From the NCBI GenBank assembly GCA_010093605.1, contig MU004193.1, positions 1,433,520 through 1,497,519 of the forward strand: DNA of 64,000 nucleotides, written 5' to 3'. The position numbers and the translations under genes were made by a program. Source of the DNA: Lophium mytilinum (taxonomy: Eukaryota). Below, piece by piece: positions 11,301 to 47,900 of the stretch (positions are counted from its first letter, which is position 1; the number at the start of each line of letters is the position of its first letter). Below the pieces are notes generated by a model. That model searched no databases, was not told where the DNA came from, and saw only the letters and a program-made list of their open reading frames with translations.

Positions 11301-13557
11301 TCAAGGCTCACTCGGGGCTCTCCCGGGCGTAGGAGTGGCGAGAGACATTTTACTAGCGCGCAAAGTCTGATGAAAGGAGTGGAGACTGTCTGTTGTTCCT
11401 GCAGCGCGATGACTAGACGCTCGCTGAGGCGGAACTGACGTGGCTGAAGTGTGTGGCCTGGCAGCGAAAAAGAAATTGACTGGATTTTGGACTCCGAGCC
11501 GCAATGATTGGACGCGGTGTGCTATTGGCTGGACGGAGAGTATTATTCGCGAGCTGAAGCGGCAACCAGCGCCCAAAGGAGCAACAAAAAGGGAAACACT
11601 TCGAGTGTCTTACAGGCTGGCATCTAGCAACAATTCATGAAAGGTTTTACCTACAGTGGATGTTTAAAATTGCAGCGATGGCGCAAACCGCTCGCGAGAC
11701 GCCGCTAGAGGGAGGGGCATACGGACCGTTATATGCACCTCGAAGATGTGGTTATTGGGCCCTCTGTAGAGCCCAATTGGCTCCACTTAGCCAGGCAGTT
11801 CGCAGCAAAGGGCGGTGAAGACGGCTCCCAGATGGTCGGGCTGGATTGCGAAAGAGAGCAGGCGGACACGCTGGAATACTCACTGCGGAATAACGAGGTG
11901 AGCAAGCGGACAATCCCGGATAATGTGAGCACAGCGACGCCTTCTACGGGCTTCTATTCGCCCATCAATGCGACGCAGAAGCACCAAGGGGGGTCCGCGC
12001 AAGGGATTGATGAGGGCCATCCAGGTCAAAGCTGGCTGGGTTCCCTCAAACGGACCAAGCAGCGCAGTCGAGTGTGTTGCGCATCGTGCATACACCCGAC
12101 CACCCTATCACGGCCTGGATAACGGCCATAGGGCACACCGGGGTCGCCATAGTGACGGCCGCCATCGTGATGTGAGTGCGGTTGAGCCTCTCCACACACG
12201 GCAGGTGGCCAGCGGACATGCTGCTCTGGCCATGGTAATGTCGATGCTGGAGGTGAGGCGTGCTGCTGGAGTGGCAGTGGTGGCACGTTGGTGGGCTATT
12301 TGCTTTTTCTCACCCACCTAGCGGAGTCGGCGTGGTGCATACGAGAGCGCAGCTCACCTCGCCCTGGGCCGGTAATTCTGCGCGCTCGAGGTCGGGGAGT
12401 CCTGGGAGGGCGACAGCCACCGCGACTGAGAGGCCGTCGGTATGTCGTGAGCGGCCCGTTAGACACGCTTTGGTCGCGAAGGAGCGTCGCGAAGAGCCAG
12501 TGCGGGCGCTGCGTCACCACACCTCCAGGCAGAGCCAATGGCCGATGATGTCTTCACAGCCTGCGACGGCCAGGACGGGCGTGGAGAGCGGAGGCGTATC
12601 GGGAGATGGGCGAGGCGAGGGACTCTGTAAATTGACATGTCTTGGCAGCATAACTCCTTCACAACGCCCGTCACAACTCCAGACAGACCCCGGATCACGC
12701 CTTCCACAATGGTCAAGCGAGTTTACGGAGTGTTTGGGATGGCAGGCGTGCGTTTCCTCTAGCAGCTTGGACGTGAGGGAAGCACTTGAAACCGCGTCAG
12801 ACGGATATGAACAGCGCCCGAGGGGGTCAAGCGCTACCACAGCGCTGCCATTTTACTAGCCCCCTTCCTGGCGATGCAGAGGAGGGCCTGGGAGGGGGCA
12901 CTGGGGCATTTAGAGCGCAGAGTGCTGCAGCCAGCCAGGCAACCTCGCGCCCGCCCGTGATGGCAGCAGAATTGGCCAGTGTCACAGGGCAGGTGGCACG
13001 CCTGGCACTGGGAGAACGGAGCCGGCATATATTCGCACGCCCTCTGGCCCTCGCTGGCTTCGCACTGTTTTCCTCATCGCCCGTTTCTGCGTGTGTCTGT
13101 GTGCCCCTTCACTTCCCCTCCGAAGTCCGTTCACGCGTTGGGCGTTAGTGATTGGAAGCCCTACCAACTGTCAACCCAAAGCCTTCAGGCCGCGACAGCT
13201 TACCTCGCTGCCAAAAATACTTAAGCACCATATGCGCCCAGCCTGACCCCCGACTCGAAAAAATTCCGTCGGCCTGCGAGCGAGACCACACCACGCTTTC
13301 TCGTCATACCCTCCGACGAGCAGCCTCCCCCCTCTTCAAGCATGGGCGCTCATCCGTAGCACCACCACTTCACACACACTTTTCAGGCCCCGCGTGCCAG
13401 GACTCAAGGCCCAAGTTCTCCCCGGCGAGCTACGGCGACTTTTGTGCCCCTCCGCGACTTATCGATATCACCACTCGCTCCGTTCCGCCATCCGGGCTAT
13501 CGCGAGATCCTCGCCCCTCACTACATCACCACCACCACCACCAAACCCCTCAACGCC

Positions 13558-15639
13558 ATGGCGGGCACCAGGCCGGCGCTGGCAGCATACTGCGAGGACG
13601 CCTCCGACGACAGCGATACTCAAACCGACACTCGCCGGCACAACAGCAGCGGCGGCCATGCCAATGTGGCCGCCAAACGCTCCCATCCCTCGGACCTCAA
13701 CAACGTCAAGTCGGTCGAGGTCGTCGGACCAGACGCCGCCTCAGACAGCGGGTACTCGAGCCACACCGCCGCTACCATGAGCAGTGCTGATTCTGCCCAA
13801 AGTCACCAGTCGAGTCCGCCGACGAGCGCGGGCACTGGCCCGGCACCGAGTCCGAGCAGGAGGAGGCCAACCCTCGAGAACACCAGAGAGCGCAGCAGCC
13901 AGAGCAGCCCGCGGAAGCCGCTGGTGCGCGTTGCATCGTCGGCGCGGAGGGATAGGGAGAAGGAGGTGGAGTGCAATGTTCCGAATTGCGAATGTAAGCA
14001 GAGCCAGAGCCAGCGGCGCCGCAGACCGCAACTCTCCTCACTAGACTCCGCCGTCGATGTCAGATATCCTTCCTACGACGAGCGCTCACAGCGCTCTGAC
14101 CCATCCAACTACCCTCCGCCGTCGCCGCAGTCTGCTCGTCAGCCGCCGCCCTACAACCAGGGCTCAGCCATTATTCAGCCAGCCTCATCTATGCGTCGTC
14201 GGACATCATCTACCTCGCGGCCTCGTCCCGTCAGCTACCATTCGGGTGTTCCCTCCGAGGCAGGAGGCTACTGGGTTCCCGGCATGCCGATCCCAGATCG
14301 AGGCCCTCCTCCCTCCATGTCCGCTCAATACGCCGTCCCATCACCTATGCAGCAATTCCCCCCAATGAGCCAAACTCCAACCAACGGTTACTATCCTCCT
14401 GGGCATCCCATGTACCCGGCACCCTACGAGCCGTCCCGCCCTCCTCTCGCCCAGCGAAACTCCTCCCAATACAGCACCCGACGACCCTCCTCCCAGTACG
14501 GGGCACCAGTCATATCCTACGAGCAGCAGCCGTATCGCGAAACAAACGTTTCAGCCCGCCCTCGTCCTAGTGCACGCTACGACTCCAACCAGCCTCCCAC
14601 TTTCGACAGTTCGAGCTCTGAAGAGAGCGAATCTGAAGAGGAGGACGATCGCCGTCGCATGCCGCCTCCACCACGAAGGCCAAGCATCCGCCAGTCAAAC
14701 CCGAACTCTTACAGCGATCGGATGACCCAGTCTCAACAGCTTCCCCCGCGGGACCGAGACCGAGACCGAGAACGGGAGCGGGAACGTGACCGCGAGTCCC
14801 GCCCACCTCGGCCGACAAGCCGTCCAGCTCGCCCAACCAGCACTGCTCCGACTCGTACGCCCTCTCTCCGTCGACCATCGTTAGTCCAGCGAGAAGTGCC
14901 GAAATCCGTTTCATACTCTAATTCAGCTGGCAATGCCAAGGTCGTCGTTGAGACTGCTAAATCTCGCCGGCGACAGTCATACATGGGACACGAGCTAGCG
15001 TACGAACTGGAGTCCAAGTCACGAAACAACCATCCCCTCTATCGCGGAGAGACTGTCGTCAACAACAGCCAACCGAGACGCCGCCAAACTGTTACTGACG
15101 ACCGCCGACGCGATGAGAACTTTGTGGACACCAAAAAGCGTGATGCCGAGGCCTATCAGCAGCGCATGCGCGGAGACCCCGTGCTCCCACTCACCGAACA
15201 ATTGCTCAAAGCATCCAAACGAACGTCACGTGTTCCCTCTGGCGCATCGGAAGCTGGTTCCACCCGCAGCAAGAACTCCCACGACCGAGCCACCCGCGTG
15301 AGCCAATCCGGCCAATCCATTGTCACCAACTCTGGAAACGGGGAAATCAAGCTCCGGCTCGATGGTGCGACCAGCTTCAACTTGCAACTCTCAGGCGGTG
15401 AACGGACCATCCGCGTAGAAGAAGCAGAGAACGGCATGCGTGAGCTGACTATCGCAACCCCACGCGGAAACGAGGTCAATTACAACAGGAGCGAAAGGGG
15501 CAGCATAGCGGGACGACGACCGCTCATCATGGCACGACGAGACGCTGAAGAGACCAGCGTCAGGAGCAGGAGAAGTAGCCGCAGCGGCCGAGCCGAGACT
15601 GAGCGGCGTCCTCTACGACGCGAGAGGTACGAGGATTAA
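13558..15639 (+). CDS. Ser/Pro/Arg-rich, largely disordered hypothetical protein (~690 aa)
   Basis: Long uninterrupted ORF whose first ATG (13558) is in a good context (CGCCATGG). Contains DSGYSS, a CNVPNCEC cluster and an RD/RE dipeptide run; followed by a T-rich 3'UTR-like region. Confidence 0.75.
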   Translation: MAGTRPALAAYCEDASDDSDTQTDTRRHNSSGGHANVAAKRSHPSDLNNVKSVEVVGPDAASDSGYSSHTAATMSSADSAQSHQSSPPTSAGTGPAPSPSRRRPTLENTRERSSQSSPRKPLVRVASSARRDREKEVECNVPNCECKQSQSQRRRRPQLSSLDSAVDVRYPSYDERSQRSDPSNYPPPSPQSARQPPPYNQGSAIIQPASSMRRRTSSTSRPRPVSYHSGVPSEAGGYWVPGMPIPDRGPPPSMSAQYAVPSPMQQFPPMSQTPTNGYYPPGHPMYPAPYEPSRPPLAQRNSSQYSTRRPSSQYGAPVISYEQQPYRETNVSARPRPSARYDSNQPPTFDSSSSEESESEEEDDRRRMPPPPRRPSIRQSNPNSYSDRMTQSQQLPPRDRDRDRERERERDRESRPPRPTSRPARPTSTAPTRTPSLRRPSLVQREVPKSVSYSNSAGNAKVVVETAKSRRRQSYMGHELAYELESKSRNNHPLYRGETVVNNSQPRRRQTVTDDRRRDENFVDTKKRDAEAYQQRMRGDPVLPLTEQLLKASKRTSRVPSGASEAGSTRSKNSHDRATRVSQSGQSIVTNSGNGEIKLRLDGATSFNLQLSGGERTIRVEEAENGMRELTIATPRGNEVNYNRSERGSIAGRRPLIMARRDAEETSVRSRRSSRSGRAETERRPLRRERYED

Positions 15640-18153
15640 GACCATTTACGTGTGATGAGGCATGAAGTATGAAGTACGAGCAGCGTTGATTTTCACTTTT
15701 GGATGCAGCGGGCGCCACATTTGTTTTTGCATGTCGTTTTCTTGGATTCCTTTCACATGCACGCAACTAGCATTCGATGTTTTCGCCCCCCATCGTAAAT
15801 TTCTACCTTCTATGTTGTGCTACTGCAGCGATTTCACTTTTTCATTGGGCGGACTGGATTGGAATTAAAAGCTTTTGACCAAAAGTTTTACTGTCTCGCC
15901 GCCATTGGGAAAAGGAAAAGCCGGATCAGCGCACCATCTTCTCTTGCTACTACCCGTTTTCTGCCACGTTTTTGGCGTTTCACTGGATTCCCCCGTTGAC
16001 ATCTTGTTCTTCATCCTCCATCGGCCCGCGATTTGATTGATTGGTTCATGCGTTTTTGGCTCCTGCAACGCGCGTGTTTTGGGCTTGCTTACTTTGCTTT
16101 GCTCTACTTAGATGTAAGTGCGTGCTCACGCACAAGCGTCGAAGGAGAGGAGGCATGGGGCTGGGCCTTCATGAGATTGAGTTGAGAAGAACACACGGAA
16201 TACGAATTTGAGACTGTACGATCCCCCGTCTACGGCTGTTGTTTCACCTTCCTTGGTTTCACCCCTTGTTGTTTTTGTTTCTGATTCTAGCAATGTGTTT
16301 TTTCTTCGTCGTTGGCCCTTGTCACTTTCTTCCATCGTCTTCATACCCTTCTTGAGCTAGCGGATACCTCTTTGCTTGGTCTATTAGCATGTGGGACACG
16401 CACTAGTGGGCTTTGGCCTACCCTTTTTCTCTTTTTCTACATAGGCTTTTAGCATTCGTGATGTTGCGTTTCTTCAAAATCTTGTGGTGGGGCTTTTTGT
16501 GTTGGGAGGATTTAATACCCTTTGCGCCCTCTATTGTAGTTAGCAACGACGGTAGGGAGGCGTGAGATTGGATGGATAGGCGGGTGTGCGGTCTGCATTG
16601 GGTTGGATGGAAACGGATCGGGGGTTACGGCTGCATGATGGGATGGATGGATTGGGGGGGTTGGAGTTCAACACCCGCAGGCTCGCTGCCTGGAGCATAC
16701 GTGCTTGAGGGTGCATGCTGGGACGACGACGACGACGATGGTGATGGTGGTGGGCCACGGCAGCCTGGCGAGCGAGCGAGCTACGTAGCATCAATCCTGA
16801 AGATGACGTTTGTTGTCTACACACCCTGTCCTTGTCTATCTCGCTTCAATGATGATGTCGCTGATATGTTTAATCCCGTTACAGCAGCACGCCTTCGTCT
16901 AAAGCAGTACAGTACGTCTCTATGTAGAGTAGCCTCGCGTCTACCTCAATCACCTTCTAGGTAACCCGCCGCATCCCCCCATCACGCAATCACCGATCCC
17001 CAGCGTCAACATCAACGTCATAACCACACCTATCTCCCGGAGCTTCAGCTCACTTGCCCTAGCACGCCACCCGTACCTCCGGCTCCAACCGACCGACCCC
17101 CGCATGCGGAAGCTTGCGAGCAGCCCGTAGCTCGCAGCCACGTCCCCCGATTCACCGCAGGTTCTCTTATCGCTGAATCCCCGGGGGCCACCCCCGCACC
17201 CCACAGATGCACCCAGCACCACCACCACCACCCCACAGATGGTAGATGGCGGGTGCTGATCGCTGGGCGGTGAGAGCTGCAGGGAGCGGAGCTAGGGGGG
17301 CGGGTGCATGGGCTGGGCGTGGCGGTGGATGGGGCCAAGGGGAGGGGGACACGTAGGTTGGGGGAGGGGGTCATGTGATGAGGGAGGTGGGATTGGGAGC
17401 TGGAGCTGGGAGTGGAGGTGTGGGTGATGGGGGTGATGTCGTTGGTGGAATCTCGATGGGGTAGGGCGACGGGGGATTGGATGAGGGAAGGCGATGGGGA
17501 TTGGGGGTGGTGGTTGGCTGGGTCGTCGATGGCTGGGGGAGGTTAGACTCGGAGTGGTCGGGGTATATGTACTACGATTGCTGTGTCTGAGGTTTGAGCG
17601 AGTTGGGAGGTTGGGGGGTGCGTGTGCTTGGGAGAGGTTTGGCGTTTAATGTTAGAGGGAAGAGGTTGGGGTGGAGTGAGGTGATGGTACGGTGTCCGTG
17701 AATGCTATGTGACTCGCTCTCGTCATGGCCTGTAGTAGGTCTACGTCAAGCTTTGAGATGCGTTAGGAAGTACAGATAGATCTCTGGGTGAACGTGTGGC
17801 TTTCATATAGGCAGGGGAAATGTGTGAAATTTTGGAAGCGTGCAATACGGAGCTGTGGAATCATTTTGTGATTGCGACCAGAGAACCTGCTTGAAACGAA
17901 AGCTGGTTGAAAGGTGCATAGAGACGAGATGTTAAACCGATATACGAACGTTATATGAGCAATGCTCAAATGTGAATGAAAACAACTCGCCCATTTTCTC
18001 TCATCAGCCGAGCAAAAACGTGAGTATGTTCACTCATGCACGCACAAGGCCAAAAAGTAAAACCAACCGCCACCCACTTCCACATCGCCGTCAGGAGTCT
18101 CTTATGTCGTCGTATACGTCCTAAAAGAGGTAGACGTAAGGAACTAAGCGACT

Positions 18154-18170
18154 AAAAAAAAATCAAAAAA
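18154..18170 (-). terminator. RNA polymerase III oligo-T terminator of the tRNA-Asp gene
   Basis: T6 (18165-18170) and T9 (18154-18162) runs on the minus strand, starting 12 nt after the tRNA 3' end. Confidence 0.8.
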
Positions 18171-18181
18171 GTAATTTTTAT

Positions 18182-18328
18182 CTCCCCAACAGGGAATCGA
18201 ACCCTGGCTGCAAACATCCGTTAGCATGATTGTTATCATGAATGGTTAATTGTGGTAGCTTACTCTCCCGCGCTTGTTAAGCAAGTTGCTTTGACAAGCG
18301 GAAATCATGACCACTAGACCATTGAGGA
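18182..18328 (-). tRNA. tRNA-Asp(GTC) with a canonical 19-nt intron (18273-18291) and a 56-nt GT-AG insertion in the variable loop (18208-18263)
   Basis: Spliced sequence TCCTCAATGGTCTAGTGGTCATGATTTCCGCTTGTCACGCGGGAGACCAGGGTTCGATTCCCTGTTGGGGAG (72 nt) folds as a cloverleaf. Acceptor stem TCCTCAA/TTGGGGA, anticodon stem TCCGC/GCGGG, anticodon GTC at 18295-18293, T-arm CAGGG-TTCGATT-CCCTG, discriminator G73. A box TGGTCTAGTGG, B box GGTTCGATTCC. Confidence 0.93.
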
Positions 18329-20547
18329 ATGTTGTGATATCCGTATGTTGGATGAGATGGTGGCGGAATTATTGTTCTTATATTGGCTGAAAAGTGACGT
18401 GGCGAGGGGCCGTAGAGGGGTGCATTAGAAAGAGTGGGCACGGGAGGAGAATTTGCGAAGTGGAGTGGGACTTGGAGAGTGGGGTCCGCCAGCGGGGGCT
18501 GGGTAGTTTTGATGGGTGACCGCGGAACAGCTTCAAGCGCCAAATCACTTCGGAACTGTGCTGCTATCTTCCATGCATGCAACATACCTTGTCTAACAAG
18601 CTTGTCTACGTCTACCGAACTTGCTATCCTAATCCCATCTCTTCTTTTACATTGAAATTATAAGCTTTTCCATCATGACACGCGGGGCGCCGAGCAGCGG
18701 GTCGGCACGCGCGCGAAAGCTTCGCACGACGCATTAAATCGGTCCAACTCAAACACTTTTCGACCTCCAAAAGTCGAGTCAGAATCTCAACGCATACATC
18801 TGAGGTGCTGCTACGCGGAATGATGATTAGAGGTCTCATCATGAAAAGTATAAGGGCTCGATAGCCGCCCGAGATCATAGCTTGCATAAAACAATCTCTG
18901 CGCGCTCACCACGTGACCATTTCCAGCTACATATCGCAATATCCTCCATTTCATCCGTATTGCCACTCTTCAAGTGCACTCCTTCCATATTATCCCTGGT
19001 TAGCATCGTTATATTTCATATTGGTTTCGCAATGGCAGCAACGTCTCTGCCCCAAACCTCCGCCATCTAGCCAAATCAAACTATTTACTTTCCCTACAGC
19101 TCATAGCTACAAGAACTCCTCTTGCTACCCAACAGTTCGGCAAAGATTGTTTGTTTGTGTTTTGAATGTATGATCAAGCACGCGAATAAAGTGTAGAAAC
19201 AGCAATTCGCTACTACTGCGCTCGTGGTGAGCTCGATTGTGCTGATTTTGAAAGACATCGCGTGGCCGGAGCGGCGGGTGGTGTATATACAACAAGCATT
19301 AGGTATGGGGCGGAGGAGGTGGTGAGGGGTTTAGTTTGACTCTAGTGATCAGAGAAAGTGCGAGATTGAAGGGCCCCGGTAGAGGAGGAAAAGGATATAG
19401 GAAAAAGAAGAGAAGAGTATAGATTAGGAGAGGAATTGTGGTGTTGGTAGGTTTGGTGTTTGGGATGCTCGTGACATGTGCAGCACTGATCGTGGAGGAG
19501 ATATGTTGGAAGGCAGCCGTTTGGGGTATCCATACTCGCTATTCGTCTTTACATGGACAATTGTGGAGATTGCACCGAGGGCGATAGATAAGTTCTTTAT
19601 TTGTGTCATGTTCTTGATCTTAACAGTCACTTCTTCTATTTGAGCCGCTGTTTTGGATATGGATGAGTACCAATTTGGCGTTCAGGTAAGGGGCAAACAT
19701 GCAAAGATGTGAAGTTCGACGCTTGACTTGACTATGTGAGTAGACACCTAGTATATGTAAAGAAGCAGACTCAAACTGATCTTAGCGTATTTGTGTATGT
19801 AGTGGAGCACGTAGGAATCACCTGACTCCTTCCTTCGCAGACTCAGAACAGTATAAAACCTCAGCACTCCTCGGAATCTTCATCTGTCATCGGTGTCATA
19901 GCAGTGGTTGTCGGGATGGAGCATCAAAAGTATGACTCGGTAGGGCCTTATGTGCTTGGGGTTTTCCGTGGCGGGCGAAACGGGCGGAGTCTGGGTCTGA
20001 TGTGATTTATTGAGTCTCTATTAAAGTTGATCAGCATCCTTAACCGAAAACGCCGAAGCTGGTTGTTAAAAAAAGATGTTCGTAGTCATCTATATCTCCA
20101 TTTGAAGTGTTGTGAGTTGTCTTCATACTTCACATTGAAAAAAACTCGCGAGGTTCAGTCTCTATAGAGGTGGTCGTTATCACTTTCACTTGATTCTGAT
20201 GCAGTTCACCAAATCAACCTCCTGCTTTCCCTCCACCAAGCACCAACATGAAGTATTATTCCGTGAATTCTTGCAAACGATGGCCGAGGCCATTCAGGCA
20301 GCATCCGAGACATGTCGTACTGGTCTGCGCAGACTAAGAGTGAGTGAGAATGAAGCGCTACTTGGCTGCACTGTTATCGTAGGTTCGGGCTCTCGGAAAA
20401 AAGAATGTCCATGGTTTCCGATATCTATATACAAGACTCCGGGTCCGCCAATGTTGGAAAGAAGATAATATATACATCTCAACCCCCGCCCATAGTCTCA
20501 GACCCTCCTTTTCCCTTCAATTTCCTTTCCCCTCACCAGCAGGTCGT

Positions 20548-44978: not shown

Positions 44979-47900
44979 TTACTCCTTCTGCCCCTCATTA
45001 AGCAACAACTCTACCACAATCTGACACCTCTCCTGCTCCGGATGCTGCAAGCTCAACTTGATCGTCCTAACCGCCCCATTCGTGCCCCCAAGCCCATCAT
45101 CCAAGCACTTCACGTCCCTCCCCGAAATAACCTGCCGCAGCCTCCCATTCTGCGCATTCCTAATCTCCACGAAATCAGGATCAAACAGCAGTACATACGG
45201 CCCATATACTGCCGCGCTCTTCGCCTTGCCCACGAATTCCATAATCACGGACCGCGAGATGTCCCCGTGCTTGTTGACGTACACGGCGCACTCCTCGTAG
45301 CAGAGTAGGAATTCCGAGTCGGAGAGGCGGAACATGCCGAGCGGGTCCTGGTTGATGAGGCGGGAGGCGATGGTGGCGACGTGGGGGGCTTTGAGGTCGG
45401 GGACGGACCACGGTTGTTTCTTGTCGAGGGTGAGGACTTCGAAGCCTTTGGAGGTAGACACGGCGAGTGAGGAGTGGAAGAGGTTGATGCCGTAGCATTC
45501 GGTGGGGATGTAGAATTCGTCGTAGTCGCGGAAGAATTCCGTGCGGCCTGATTTCCAGATGCGGGATTTCTTTTCGGTGGACTTTTGGTAGACGGGCTCG
45601 AGGACCTGCGAGGGTGGGATGTTAGTTGTCTACTGCGGGTGAGGTTGAGGGAGTTTCAGGGGTCACGACGAACCTTGAAAGTGGAAGAGAGACCCTCGCG
45701 CTTCTTGTAGAAGACGAGAGTCCGTTCCTTCATTTTGCCGGTGGAGAAGAAGCCGACGTCTCGGGCCCCTGATAGCTTTTGAGGGGCTTTCCGGGCGGTG
45801 TCGCTTCCTGGTGCCGCGCCACCAACAGGGCACACGGCATCAAGATGATATGCAATTAGTGACTTATCGGAGATGAGTATCATCAAGCTGAACTCCTCTA
45901 AAACCGCGAGTTGAGTGACTCTTGGTATTTGGATTCCCTAGCAACGATGTTAGTAACATAATACATTGTCTGAAGGACAGGAGAAGTTCTACCTTGGACC
46001 ACCCACGAGGATTATCCATTTCCGAGATGTAGACACCGATATCAGTACCAATTGCAATCATAGGCTTGCCATACGGTTGGTTGAATGCCGTTGCGCAATT
46101 GACTTTCGCCCTGCAAATCGGTACGGGGCGACCACGCTCAGCGAATAGTTTCTCCACATCGTCAATCGCTCTGTCCAGAGGAGTGCCTTTGATAGTGATG
46201 TTTCTCTGGGCAGGCATTGCGCTTTCGTAGGCAAAGGCCGAGTCTGCCATGACTCGCAAGCGGAAAGGTTCGGCATTCTGTGCAAACAGGGCCGCTGCGT
46301 GCTTCGTCTTCGCAATGATGATCTTGTCGCACCACTCTGCCCTGTTGGCGGCGCTTGGAGCGAATAGAGTGTAGACCTCTTTGCCGAGATGCTTTATCCG
46401 GAAAGGATATAGAATCTTTTCGTCCTTCGGTTGGTCGAGGTTGTTGTTTTGAGTCAACGTCTTGCCAGACGAAGTTGTGCTCATTGACGTTTGGGAAGTT
46501 CCAGTATTAGTATGTTGTAGAGTCCCCGGACCCGGGCTCTGATTAGAGGCTGTCCTTCCGAGGCGTGAGTCCTGCACGCCCTTTACGGGGTTGGCGATTG
46601 GTGTGAACCCCTTGACAGCTGATTTGATGACGGGATCGTCGTCTTCGCTTTCTAGAACCAAAAGGTCCATTGGTATTGGCTAGGCATAAGTCAGTTGAGA
46701 AGTCGGCCTAATGTGCAAGGGAGCTTACGAGTTTCGATATGTCATACTTCTCCGACGCTGTGACTCCATCGGCTTCCCTATGCTTAATCGTCTTCGCGAG
46801 AACAAGATAGTGGTCAAATAGCAACGCATGGTTTTCCACCCAGGTGAATCGGTTCCCTCCTAGTCGTTGCAGGTCGTTCTTGTAGATCAGCTCTCGACCA
46901 AGGTGGTTGAGGTTCAACTCGACCCGCTGCATTCCCGGCCGCAGGATCAATTTGTCTTGTAGGTCTGTCAAGTCGACTTTGCGTGTCATTTCGGCGACGC
47001 GATTGTCACACTCCATGGTGACAGCTTTGATCTCTTCCATAGCAATTTGAAGATTTCTCTTCTCTTCCCCGTCCTGCGTGGTTCGTCTGAGAACCGTCCC
47101 AAGGAGAAGACTGTAATGCTGCAACCTAGTGATTGGGGCTTTGAGGAAAGTGTCCCAGCTCAACTTGTTTGACTGCTTGTTTGCTCTTGCTTCATCCAAA
47201 AACGTGCGGAACAGGATGTTCCTGTCTGCTTCCTGCCGCACTAGAAACGTCGCATACGGAAACGCCGCAGAATACTCAATATAAGCCTGTTTCGCTTTCC
47301 TTATCCATTCCCGGAAGATGTCACTGAAGCCAACAACCCATGGGCCTTGTTCTTGTTGTCGATACTTCATCTGGGGTAGGAGATGGTCTTCATTCGCCTT
47401 TTTCACAGCATCCACCTTGCCAAAAACGTCGCGAATGAAGACTTTCAACTTCTTGGGACCGATAACGGCAGGTTGTGATGACAGCAGCTTGTCCCGGTAG
47501 AGCTGTCTGAGCACATCCAGGTTTTCCATGAATTTGTCTTCTCCTTGGACGATCTCGTGTAGGATGTTCTGACGCTCAATTTCCTTCGCGTTGATGCCCT
47601 CGACGTCTTCTTTCTTGACAGTGTAAAACGTTGCCCAGTCGTCCGACCGCGGGACGGCGGTCTGTGATTGAAGATCGATCTTCTTCAATGTCCTCTGGCA
47701 GTGGTAGGCATAGCATCGGCCACCCGTGTGGTGTTCGTGCACCTTTGGAGCGTAACAACCAGCGCCAGTCAGCTGGAATATTACCCCAGTCATCGTCTCC
47801 GAAGAAAATTTGAGCCACTCTTCCTCGTGGACTAGAGTGCCGGCTTTGTACATCTCTGCGACAACACGGCTACCTAATGTTTCTGCGTCGGCTACATTCA

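Follow-up and report, generated by a model that had tools for sequence, protein, structure and literature searches.

A tRNA-Asp(GUC) gene of Lophium mytilinum with a canonical tRNA intron and a spliceosomal-type intron

Can a single transfer RNA (tRNA) depend for its maturation on two unrelated splicing machineries? The question is raised by a tRNA-Asp(GUC) gene in a 64-kb stretch of Lophium mytilinum DNA (hereafter the window), in which 147 nucleotides (nt) hold a canonical tRNA intron and, behind an exon of only 9 nt, a second intron with the signals of messenger RNA (mRNA) splicing. An initial annotation of the locus had described this arrangement, and all of its coordinates and strings proved correct; it had further proposed that the spliceosome acts first and the tRNA splicing endonuclease (SEN) with its ligase second. 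The recurrence of such introns at other sites in related tRNA-Asp genes, which we report below, was no part of it. We consider it probable that the locus is a working nuclear tRNA-Asp(GUC) gene whose precursor is spliced by these two machineries, the spliceosome and then the endonuclease. The sequences compared here suggest that it belongs to a class of fungal-type tRNA-Asp genes in which spliceosomal-type introns were gained at many sites.

Architecture and splicing signals of the gene

All gene coordinates are those of the minus strand of the window, and 5' to 3' runs from 18328 to 18182. The gene, its exons and introns, and the putative signals of the longer intron are as follows:

18182..18328, minus strand: tRNA-Asp(GUC) gene, 147 nt with two introns and 72 nt without both (Rfam RF00005, and ARAGORN on the spliced form)
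18292..18328, minus strand: exon 1, tRNA positions 1-37, 37 nt (acceptor 5' strand, D arm, anticodon stem 5' strand)
18293..18295, minus strand: anticodon GTC, within exon 1
18273..18291, minus strand: canonical tRNA intron after position 37, 19 nt, AAGCAACTTGCTTAACAAG
18264..18272, minus strand: exon 2, positions 38-46, 9 nt, CGCGGGAGA
18208..18263, minus strand: spliceosomal-type GT..AG intron between positions 46 and 48 (variable loop), 56 nt
18258..18263, minus strand: 5' splice site GTAAGC, fitting GTRAGY, with G at +5; unchanged in the paralog
18225..18240, minus strand: hairpin CATGAT-AACA-ATCATG inside the 56-nt intron
18220..18224, minus strand: branch-site motif CTAAC, with the branch A 13 nt before the last base of the intron; unchanged in the paralog
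18208..18210, minus strand: 3' splice site CAG, fitting YAG; unchanged in the paralog
18182..18207, minus strand: exon 3, positions 48-73 (T arm, acceptor 3' strand, discriminator G)

The Rfam tRNA model RF00005 matched 18182-18328 on the minus strand with 33.5 bits (gathering threshold 29) over model positions 1-71 of 71; two inserts were placed, one within the anticodon loop and a long one within the variable region. This was the sole match of the model in the 64 kb, even at E values up to 1. ARAGORN in its default mode called no tRNA in the window. Once both introns were removed in silico, the program recognized a tRNA-Asp(gtc) of 72 nt with all seven acceptor pairs and G73, which we take to be an Asp identity element; on the form lacking the 56 nt alone, it returned a tRNA-Asp with a 19-nt intron at 38, i(38,19). 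The shorter intron is of the conventional kind. It lies at 37/38, and the ACAAG at its 3' end pairs with CUUGU of the anticodon arm in minimum free energy (MFE) folds, as had been proposed from the letters. Both canonical features of a SEN-type intron, the site and the anticodon-loop pairing near the 3' splice site, are thus present.

The 56-nt intron is of another kind. Fungal spliceosomal introns follow the consensus GTRAGY...CTRAY...YAG, and the insert carries all three elements at its ends and near its 3' end. The T arm of the tRNA is restored by only one split, and that split is GT-AG. According to a rough estimate, the joint chance of a GTAAG start, an AG end and a CTAAC 13 nt from the end is about 1e-6. 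Its length fits as well: the candidate introns that join open reading frames (ORFs) in the window, themselves unverified gene models, measure 48-70 nt and have CTAAC or CTGAC near the 3' end, and a candidate at 46680-46728 (minus strand) opens with the same hexamer GTAAGC. These signals support the reading of the insert as a U2-type (GT-AG, branch-site) spliceosomal-type intron, from which we infer that it is spliced out.

Conservation in paralogous copies and recurrence in related genes

Parts of the region are contained in seven sequencing runs, of which X1 and X2 probably derive from the source organism. Their contigs were compared over 17700-18800, an interval to which no contig of runs X4 and X6 was matched; the contigs of X1 behave as a unitig graph with k=31. 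There, the contig of this locus has a depth of 151.9 and a 128-nt contig one of 286.6; each ends at 18316, and the two merge into a 36-nt node (depth 436.7), from which three different upstream flanks lead off (records 5, 6, and 7, depths 119-160). Given the depths of 151.9 and 286.6 against 436.7 for the merged node, together with the three upstream flanks, we count three tRNA-Asp copies in X1.

The double-depth contig covers 18189-18316 and holds both introns in a paralogous version common to two copies. Compared with the window, this paralog has 7 substitutions and 4 one-base indels in the 56-nt intron and 3 substitutions in the 19-nt intron, so that the listed changes amount to 0 at 53 exon positions versus 14 at 75 intron positions (Fisher p = 0.0003). 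No intron-free path joins the shared exon-1 node of the graph, which implies, on this reading of the graph, that every copy with this exon 1 carries both introns; the graph displays only such copies, and tRNA-Asp genes with a different exon 1 would be invisible in it.

The third copy (X1 record 5, 18293-18322) differs at acceptor positions 5 and 6, with TCCTTGA versus TCCTCAA. As the paralog contig begins only at 18189, a matching change at position 67 is suggested for this copy, which, if position 67 is indeed changed, would be a compensated acceptor variant also carrying both introns.

Metagenome contigs were scanned with a pattern of the anticodon arm in which 0-30 bases were allowed at 37/38, yielding at least 113 loci; the results that follow hold for the loci listed and the window. 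From these 114 loci, 105 were resolved into 82 distinct genes. The remaining nine include five that are cut by the end of the locus (L021, L067, L072, L095, and L105), three with variant or mutated arms (L083, L107, and L112), and L062, which was rejected as a tRNA gene and excluded from the counts, being a chance match of the pattern on a GC-rich, bacterial-looking contig.

Most of the resolved genes are plain tRNA-Asp genes with one canonical 37/38 intron of 8-28 nt, and in the relatives this intron ends in ACAAG, TCAAG, CAAAG, or ATAAG. Extra GT..AG inserts were found in 15 of the 81 distinct metagenome genes, in the form of 19 introns at 12 sites other than that of the window; the scan required an uninterrupted anticodon arm, so introns inside the arm were undetectable and these frequencies are not population estimates. 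With the window gene included, 16 distinct genes carry 20 extra inserts of 45-60 nt at 13 positions (14/15, 20/21, 24/25, 25/26, 46/48, 49/50, 52/53, 53/54, 54/55, 58/59, 60/61, 61/62, and 62/63). Position 46/48 is used by the window gene only, and four genes contain three introns in total each.

All 20 inserts can be drawn as GT..AG, and the nine whose boundary is unique are all GT-AG. Features that had not been selected for point in the same direction: at the 5' end, G stands at +5 in 20/20 inserts, A at +3 in 15/20 and at +4 in 16/20, and T at +6 in 14/20; a CTRAY motif lies 9-14 nt from the end in 17 inserts, the other three having the near variants TTGAC or TTAAC; and 18 inserts end in YAG. 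When spliced in silico, 16 of the 16 genes were called by ARAGORN as tRNA-Asp(gtc) of 72 nt, with an acceptor stem of 7/7 pairs in 15 of them. Given the genomic forms, the same program missed 12 of the 16 genes, assigned a wrong isotype to two, and modelled two as tRNA-Asp with a wrong single long intron.

Two comparisons bear on the history of these introns. An identical mature tRNA results from the window gene (46/48), L001 (25/26 and 61/62), and L113 (60/61), and the same product with different extra-intron sites argues for independent gains. The genes L070 and L097 have identical exons (72/72) and share an intron at 58/59 that aligns without gaps and is identical at 39/52 positions, while their 50-nt trailers match at only 27/54; an intron kept while the trailers diverged points to its having been carried through the divergence under selection on exons and signals.

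The initial annotation had drawn attention to further features of the 56-nt intron, most of which lose their weight on comparison. The hairpin at 18225-18240 is present and forms in the MFE fold; in the paralog, the arm base 18239 is changed while its partner 18226 has no listed change, the loop is changed at 18234, and bases are inserted behind 18232 and 18240. With one arm and the loop altered and two insertions added, the hairpin is not conserved, nor does it exceed chance, and it is probably incidental. Its CATGAT arm does recur in the D arm (18304-18309), as had been noted in support of an alternative fold, at a level that chance would provide (about 0.8 shared 6-mers expected, by estimate, between sequences of 56 and 72 nt). 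The suggested folding of the precursor in silico gave an MFE structure in which the D arm pairs with ACCAC and ACCAU of the intron, the fold with the cloverleaf enforced being 7.4 kcal/mol weaker. We give this pairing no weight, because the complementarity is no better than that of shuffled introns: for the intron-exon duplex energy, z was -0.54 in the window and averaged -0.58 across the 20 introns, few of which were individually low. On these z-scores, intron-exon complementarity was rejected as a general means of unfolding the tRNA. A search for introner-like relatives of the 56-nt intron ended with no further copy in the 64-kb window or in the at least 113 listed loci, so that these sequences give no sign of an introner; over this stretch, X1 gave only the paralogous tRNA copy of the intron, at 80% likeness.

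Some individual loci deserve mention in their own right. L025 is the sole resolved gene without any intron, the 37/38 intron included, and has a tRNA-Glu(ttc) about 230 nt away, the only neighbouring tRNA that ARAGORN reported on the listed loci; every other non-Asp call of the program overlaps the Asp gene itself and looks mis-modelled. L112 is nearly identical to L088 and has the same two extra introns, with TCTGATTCC in place of TTCGATTCC as its T loop, and is possibly a decaying copy. In L083, the letters ...CCCTAG stand before the D-arm half, and no place for a 5' exon was found within 260 nt, which would mean either a longer intron or a truncated gene. In one environmental clade (L004, L020, L024, L034, L043, L064, L068, L074, and similar), a short hairpin of the CTGAGCTCATG(G)CTCAG type lies between the tRNA 3' end and the oligo-T; in another (L012, L041, L049, L050, L053, L054, L075, and similar), this place is taken by a block of about 75 nt ending in a stem of the CCGGTGYTGG...CCARCAYCG type. 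These conserved trailer elements may represent a second small RNA transcribed together with the tRNA, or else a signal for processing.

The window gene itself is surrounded by about 4.9 kb without a recognizable protein gene, flanked by a low-complexity ORF of 759 aa and a PL3 pectate lyase gene, with a protein kinase gene farther along. The ORF (13360-15639, plus strand) is Ser/Pro/Arg-rich with an (RD/RE)n run, had no Pfam match, and lies in a GC-rich block (12001-16000, GC 0.60 vs about 0.51 around).

Excision, splicing order and transcription

Evidence that bears on excision comes from run X3. It carries another organism label, it is RNA by guess only and may be DNA, and none of the runs is recorded as RNA. 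Three contigs were obtained at the locus, with depths of 80.4, 15.6, and 3.8. Record 9 (347 nt, depth 80.4) contains the pieces 18189-18207 and 18264-18328 in direct adjacency, with exactly 56 nt missing; it retains the 19-nt intron, bearing the three differences seen in the X1 paralog, and continues into the upstream flank of X1 record 7 (30/30 of the letters shown). Up to 18207, record 8 (697 nt, depth 15.6) matches the trailer of this locus without a difference, and it ends four letters further on. Such an end point is expected of a k=31 unitig if this locus was joined as well, with the junction shared with the paralog, while retention of the intron in X3 would have produced an unbranched path, as in X1. 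Positions 18208-18263 and 18329-18545 were not covered in X3, holes that prove nothing and are given as context only.

The flanks of X3 differ from the window at 0 of 763 nt. It is likely, in our judgement, that X3 is RNA of the same or a nearly identical strain, because DNA would have to lack both of two introns that differ from each other by about 20% while its flanks are identical over 763 nt, and because the depths of the adjacent contigs (80.4, 15.6, 3.8) are uneven. If it is RNA, record 9 has the form of the predicted intermediate, with the spliceosomal intron gone and the tRNA intron kept. The order that the initial annotation had put forward fits this record in that the 56 nt are absent and the 19 nt present; the joint has only 19 letters on one side, and the RNA nature of the run is a guess. 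The tRNA endonuclease of budding and fission yeast works in the cytoplasm, on precursors already exported from the nucleus. If the same is true here, the spliceosome-first order would follow. We envisage, conditionally, that the spliceosome would remove the 56-nt variable-loop intron in the nucleus, likely as the first step, that the tRNA splicing endonuclease and ligase would then remove the 19-nt intron at 37/38, and that the product would be a 72-nt tRNA of the same sequence as in related genes.

Several points weigh against this reading. The short side of record 9 (19 letters) is under the 31-letter bar set for a bridge and no joint was tabulated, so that excision and its order have one sub-threshold contig behind them. 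The strict intron pattern is not enriched: the window has 7 matches, and first-order resamples averaged 3.8. As a benchmark for host introns, the ORF-joining candidates are unverified gene models. The metagenome contigs are presumed to be fungal because of their intron signals, and the scan has the blind spot described above. Intron-free tRNA-Asp genes with another exon-1 sequence may also exist in the genome. To these are added two observations on transcription, given below: the imperfect B boxes of some relatives and the long flanks attached to the X3 contigs.

The promoter and terminator elements of the gene are the following:

18311..18321, minus strand: A box TGGTCTAGTGG, 0 mismatches to TRGYNNARNGG
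18193..18203, minus strand: B box GGTTCGATTCC, 0 mismatches to GGTTCRANNCC, 107 nt after the A box
18154..18170, minus strand: T6 (18165-18170) and T9 (18154-18162), 11 and 19 nt after the gene, a terminator of the RNA polymerase III (Pol III) type

The consensus of the A box is TRGYNNARNGG and that of the B box GGTTCRANNCC. A run of at least five T within 60 nt follows all 16 intron-bearing genes, compared with 45 of the 64 others. The A box is intact in 14/16 intron-bearing genes and the B box has at most one mismatch in 10/16; it has two mismatches in 5/16 and three in 1/16, and these six genes fit badly with plain TFIIIC-driven Pol III transcription. Where an intron splits a box, the GT or AG of the splice site often rebuilds the A or B box at the DNA level. 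At junctions in L040, L071, L051, and L052, AG followed directly by GTTCGATTCC makes a perfect B box, and TGGTCTA followed by GTAGG an A box with one mismatch. Split B boxes might be rescued by TATA-dependent, TFIIIC-independent transcription from upstream, which the accessible part of PMC3978253 describes for tRNA genes of some fungi and plants. The X3 contigs attach a leader of 263 nt (record 9) or a trailer of about 690 nt past T6 and T9 (record 8), which is unlike Pol III transcripts, with the qualification that a contig running across neighbouring features need not be one transcript. We put the chances that the precursor is transcribed by Pol III rather than by RNA polymerase II (Pol II) only a little above even.

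One alternative, which shares the core of a spliceosomal intron with the explanation preferred here and departs from it in the polymerase alone, is that splicing of the 56 nt is confined to longer Pol II-type transcripts running through the gene, which either yield the tRNA through RNase P and RNase Z or are themselves by-products, and that Pol III transcripts of the locus would not serve the spliceosome as substrates. It draws on the leader of at least 263 nt and the long trailer joined to tRNA exons in X3, on the B boxes that are split or carry 2-3 mismatches in relatives, and on the normal coupling of spliceosomal splicing to Pol II, PMC12530127 placing spliceosomal introns, in the text available from it, in Pol II transcripts. 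Set against this are the perfect A and B boxes of the window gene and the T runs behind every intron-bearing gene, and the U6 gene of S. pombe, a Pol III transcript with an mRNA-type intron according to the excerpted text of PMC5855946; the absence of runs of five or more T inside the 20 introns (0 vs 1.09 expected) is not significant and adds little. We regard this alternative as rather unlikely. Less probable still, and in our view improbable, is that the joined form in X3 could be genomic DNA of a close strain without the 56-nt insert, that is, a presence/absence polymorphism. The uncertain nature and the label of the run would allow it, and its longest contig of 29,983 nt, together with the 0.79 of the words of an 8.1-kb stretch including intergenic DNA that X3 contains, speaks in its favour. 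It would demand that both loci lack old introns which differ by at least 7 substitutions and 4 indels while their flanks show no difference in 763 nt, and the depths of the three contigs on adjoining single-copy DNA are unlike those of a DNA library.

The locus and its two paralogs might instead be dead tRNA-Asp genes with an insertion that is never removed, the working tRNA-Asp coming from other genes. The default run of ARAGORN, which finds no tRNA in the window, agrees with such a view; yet changes have accumulated in the introns and not in the exons, the splice signals are conserved, 16 of 16 such genes restore a perfect tRNA-Asp, L070 and L097 kept their intron despite randomized trailers, A and B boxes and terminators are maintained, and the X1 graph has no intron-free copy with this exon 1. 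We therefore hold it to be very unlikely. Removal of the 56 nt by the tRNA endonuclease, either as a non-canonical intron of the kind known from Cyanidioschyzon, nucleomorphs, and archaea or as part of a single 69-nt intron at 37/38, is the reading to which we give hardly any credence. Eukaryotic tRNA genes with several non-canonical introns do exist (PMC3978253, in the part available), and ARAGORN with option -i proposes an 80-nt tRNA-Asp with a 69-nt intron; that model was rejected, as its anticodon stem would be mismatched and its variable loop odd and long, whereas the two-intron model yields a sequence identical to those of L001 and L113. For the non-canonical variant, bulge-helix-bulge geometry was tested as two 3-nt bulges around a 4-bp helix, cut after the second base of the bulge. 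A complete 4-bp central helix was found in 0 of the 20 GT-AG inserts, and the 56-nt intron of the window reached 3/4 in the central, 1/3 in the outer, and 1/3 in the inner helix; the canonical 37/38 introns had a complete central helix in 4/16. Moreover, the conserved GTAAGY, CTRAY, and YAG would have no role in endonuclease splicing.

Significance and comparison with known systems

We found no paper describing spliceosomal-type introns in tRNA-Asp genes, and no report of spliceosomal introns in tRNA genes at all, in the open-access literature of PubMed Central (PMC) and bioRxiv; subscription journals were outside this scope, and absence from print is not proven. In the text seen of a 2025 paper (PMC12530127), spliceosomal introns are ascribed to transcripts of Pol II, the introns of tRNAs being left to the endonuclease, and the two types are called 'completely unrelated'; a 2023 tRNA review (PMC10275265) names the spliceosome, in its available part, merely as a contrast. 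If our explanation is true, a tRNA precursor that needs both machineries would break the separation of the two intron systems made in current reviews, and tRNA would join the short list of noncoding RNAs with mRNA-type introns (U6, U1, U2, U5, and ribosomal RNA (rRNA)). The 147-nt gene would offer a compact natural system for the action of the spliceosome on a tightly folded RNA of the Pol III type, for intron gain, and for the tolerance of promoter boxes.

The supply of an essential tRNA would also be tied to spliceosome activity. This coupling, already proposed in the initial annotation, is plausible because all three copies detectable in X1 carry the intron, with the reservation that other tRNA-Asp genes are possible. 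A practical consequence would be that standard tRNA finders miss such genes: with 12 of the 16 missed by ARAGORN and four mis-modelled, fungal tRNA gene counts, and models of codon usage and tRNA supply, may be wrong where they exist. A wider claim, for which we hold the chances to be evenly balanced, is that spliceosome-dependent tRNA maturation is real, widespread, and overlooked in filamentous fungi, that every tRNA-Asp(GUC) gene here needs the spliceosome and then the endonuclease, and that related lineages gained introns repeatedly at no fewer than 12 sites of this tRNA, some of them in the B box, with up to three introns per 72-nt tRNA. On this wider claim, either Pol III transcripts would be routine substrates of the spliceosome, or the tRNAs concerned would be cut from Pol II transcripts.

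Among known systems, the canonical eukaryotic tRNA intron at 37/38, cut by the SEN endonuclease and followed by ligation (PMC10275265, in the part available), is matched by the 19-nt intron in its site, in its length (8-28 nt in the intron-bearing relatives), and in a 3' end complementary to the anticodon loop. The 56-nt intron departs from it by its position at 46/48, by having no endonuclease-type structure, and by its spliceosomal signals. Cyanidioschyzon merolae, nucleomorphs, and archaea have tRNA genes with multiple bulge-helix-bulge introns, as well as permuted tRNA genes, as the accessible part of PMC3978253 describes. The present genes resemble them in carrying more than one intron and in having introns outside the anticodon loop; unlike them, they have GT-AG ends and a branch site in place of the complete bulge-helix-bulge, which none of the 20 inserts shows.

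Closer counterparts are found among the mRNA-type introns of noncoding RNA genes. In the excerpted text of PMC5855946, such introns are known in the U6, U2, U5, and U1 small nuclear RNA (snRNA) genes and in rRNA genes, and tRNA is not among the hosts that this text names. The introns of spliceosomal kind that ascomycetes carry in their nuclear rRNA genes (Bhattacharya et al. 2000, as cited there) are comparable to the tRNA-Asp case, so far as that text goes, in lying at many scattered sites of fungal genes transcribed by a polymerase other than Pol II, and differ in that their host is an rRNA made by Pol I. The closest known kind, to judge from the same excerpt, are the mRNA-type introns in U6 and further snRNA genes of fungi (S. 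pombe, Rhodotorula, and others; Tani and Ohshima 1989/1991, Takahashi 1993/1996, and Canzler 2016, all via PMC5855946). There, too, a short GT-AG intron with a branch site interrupts a short gene for a structured noncoding RNA, Pol III transcribes U6, and insertions occurred at several independent sites across fungal lineages. In contrast to U6 and the other snRNAs, tRNA-Asp is not a component of the spliceosome, so that reverse splicing into an active-site neighbour is not an obvious explanation of the gain; and its gene also holds an endonuclease-type intron, which would bring two splicing systems to bear on one precursor of 147 nt.

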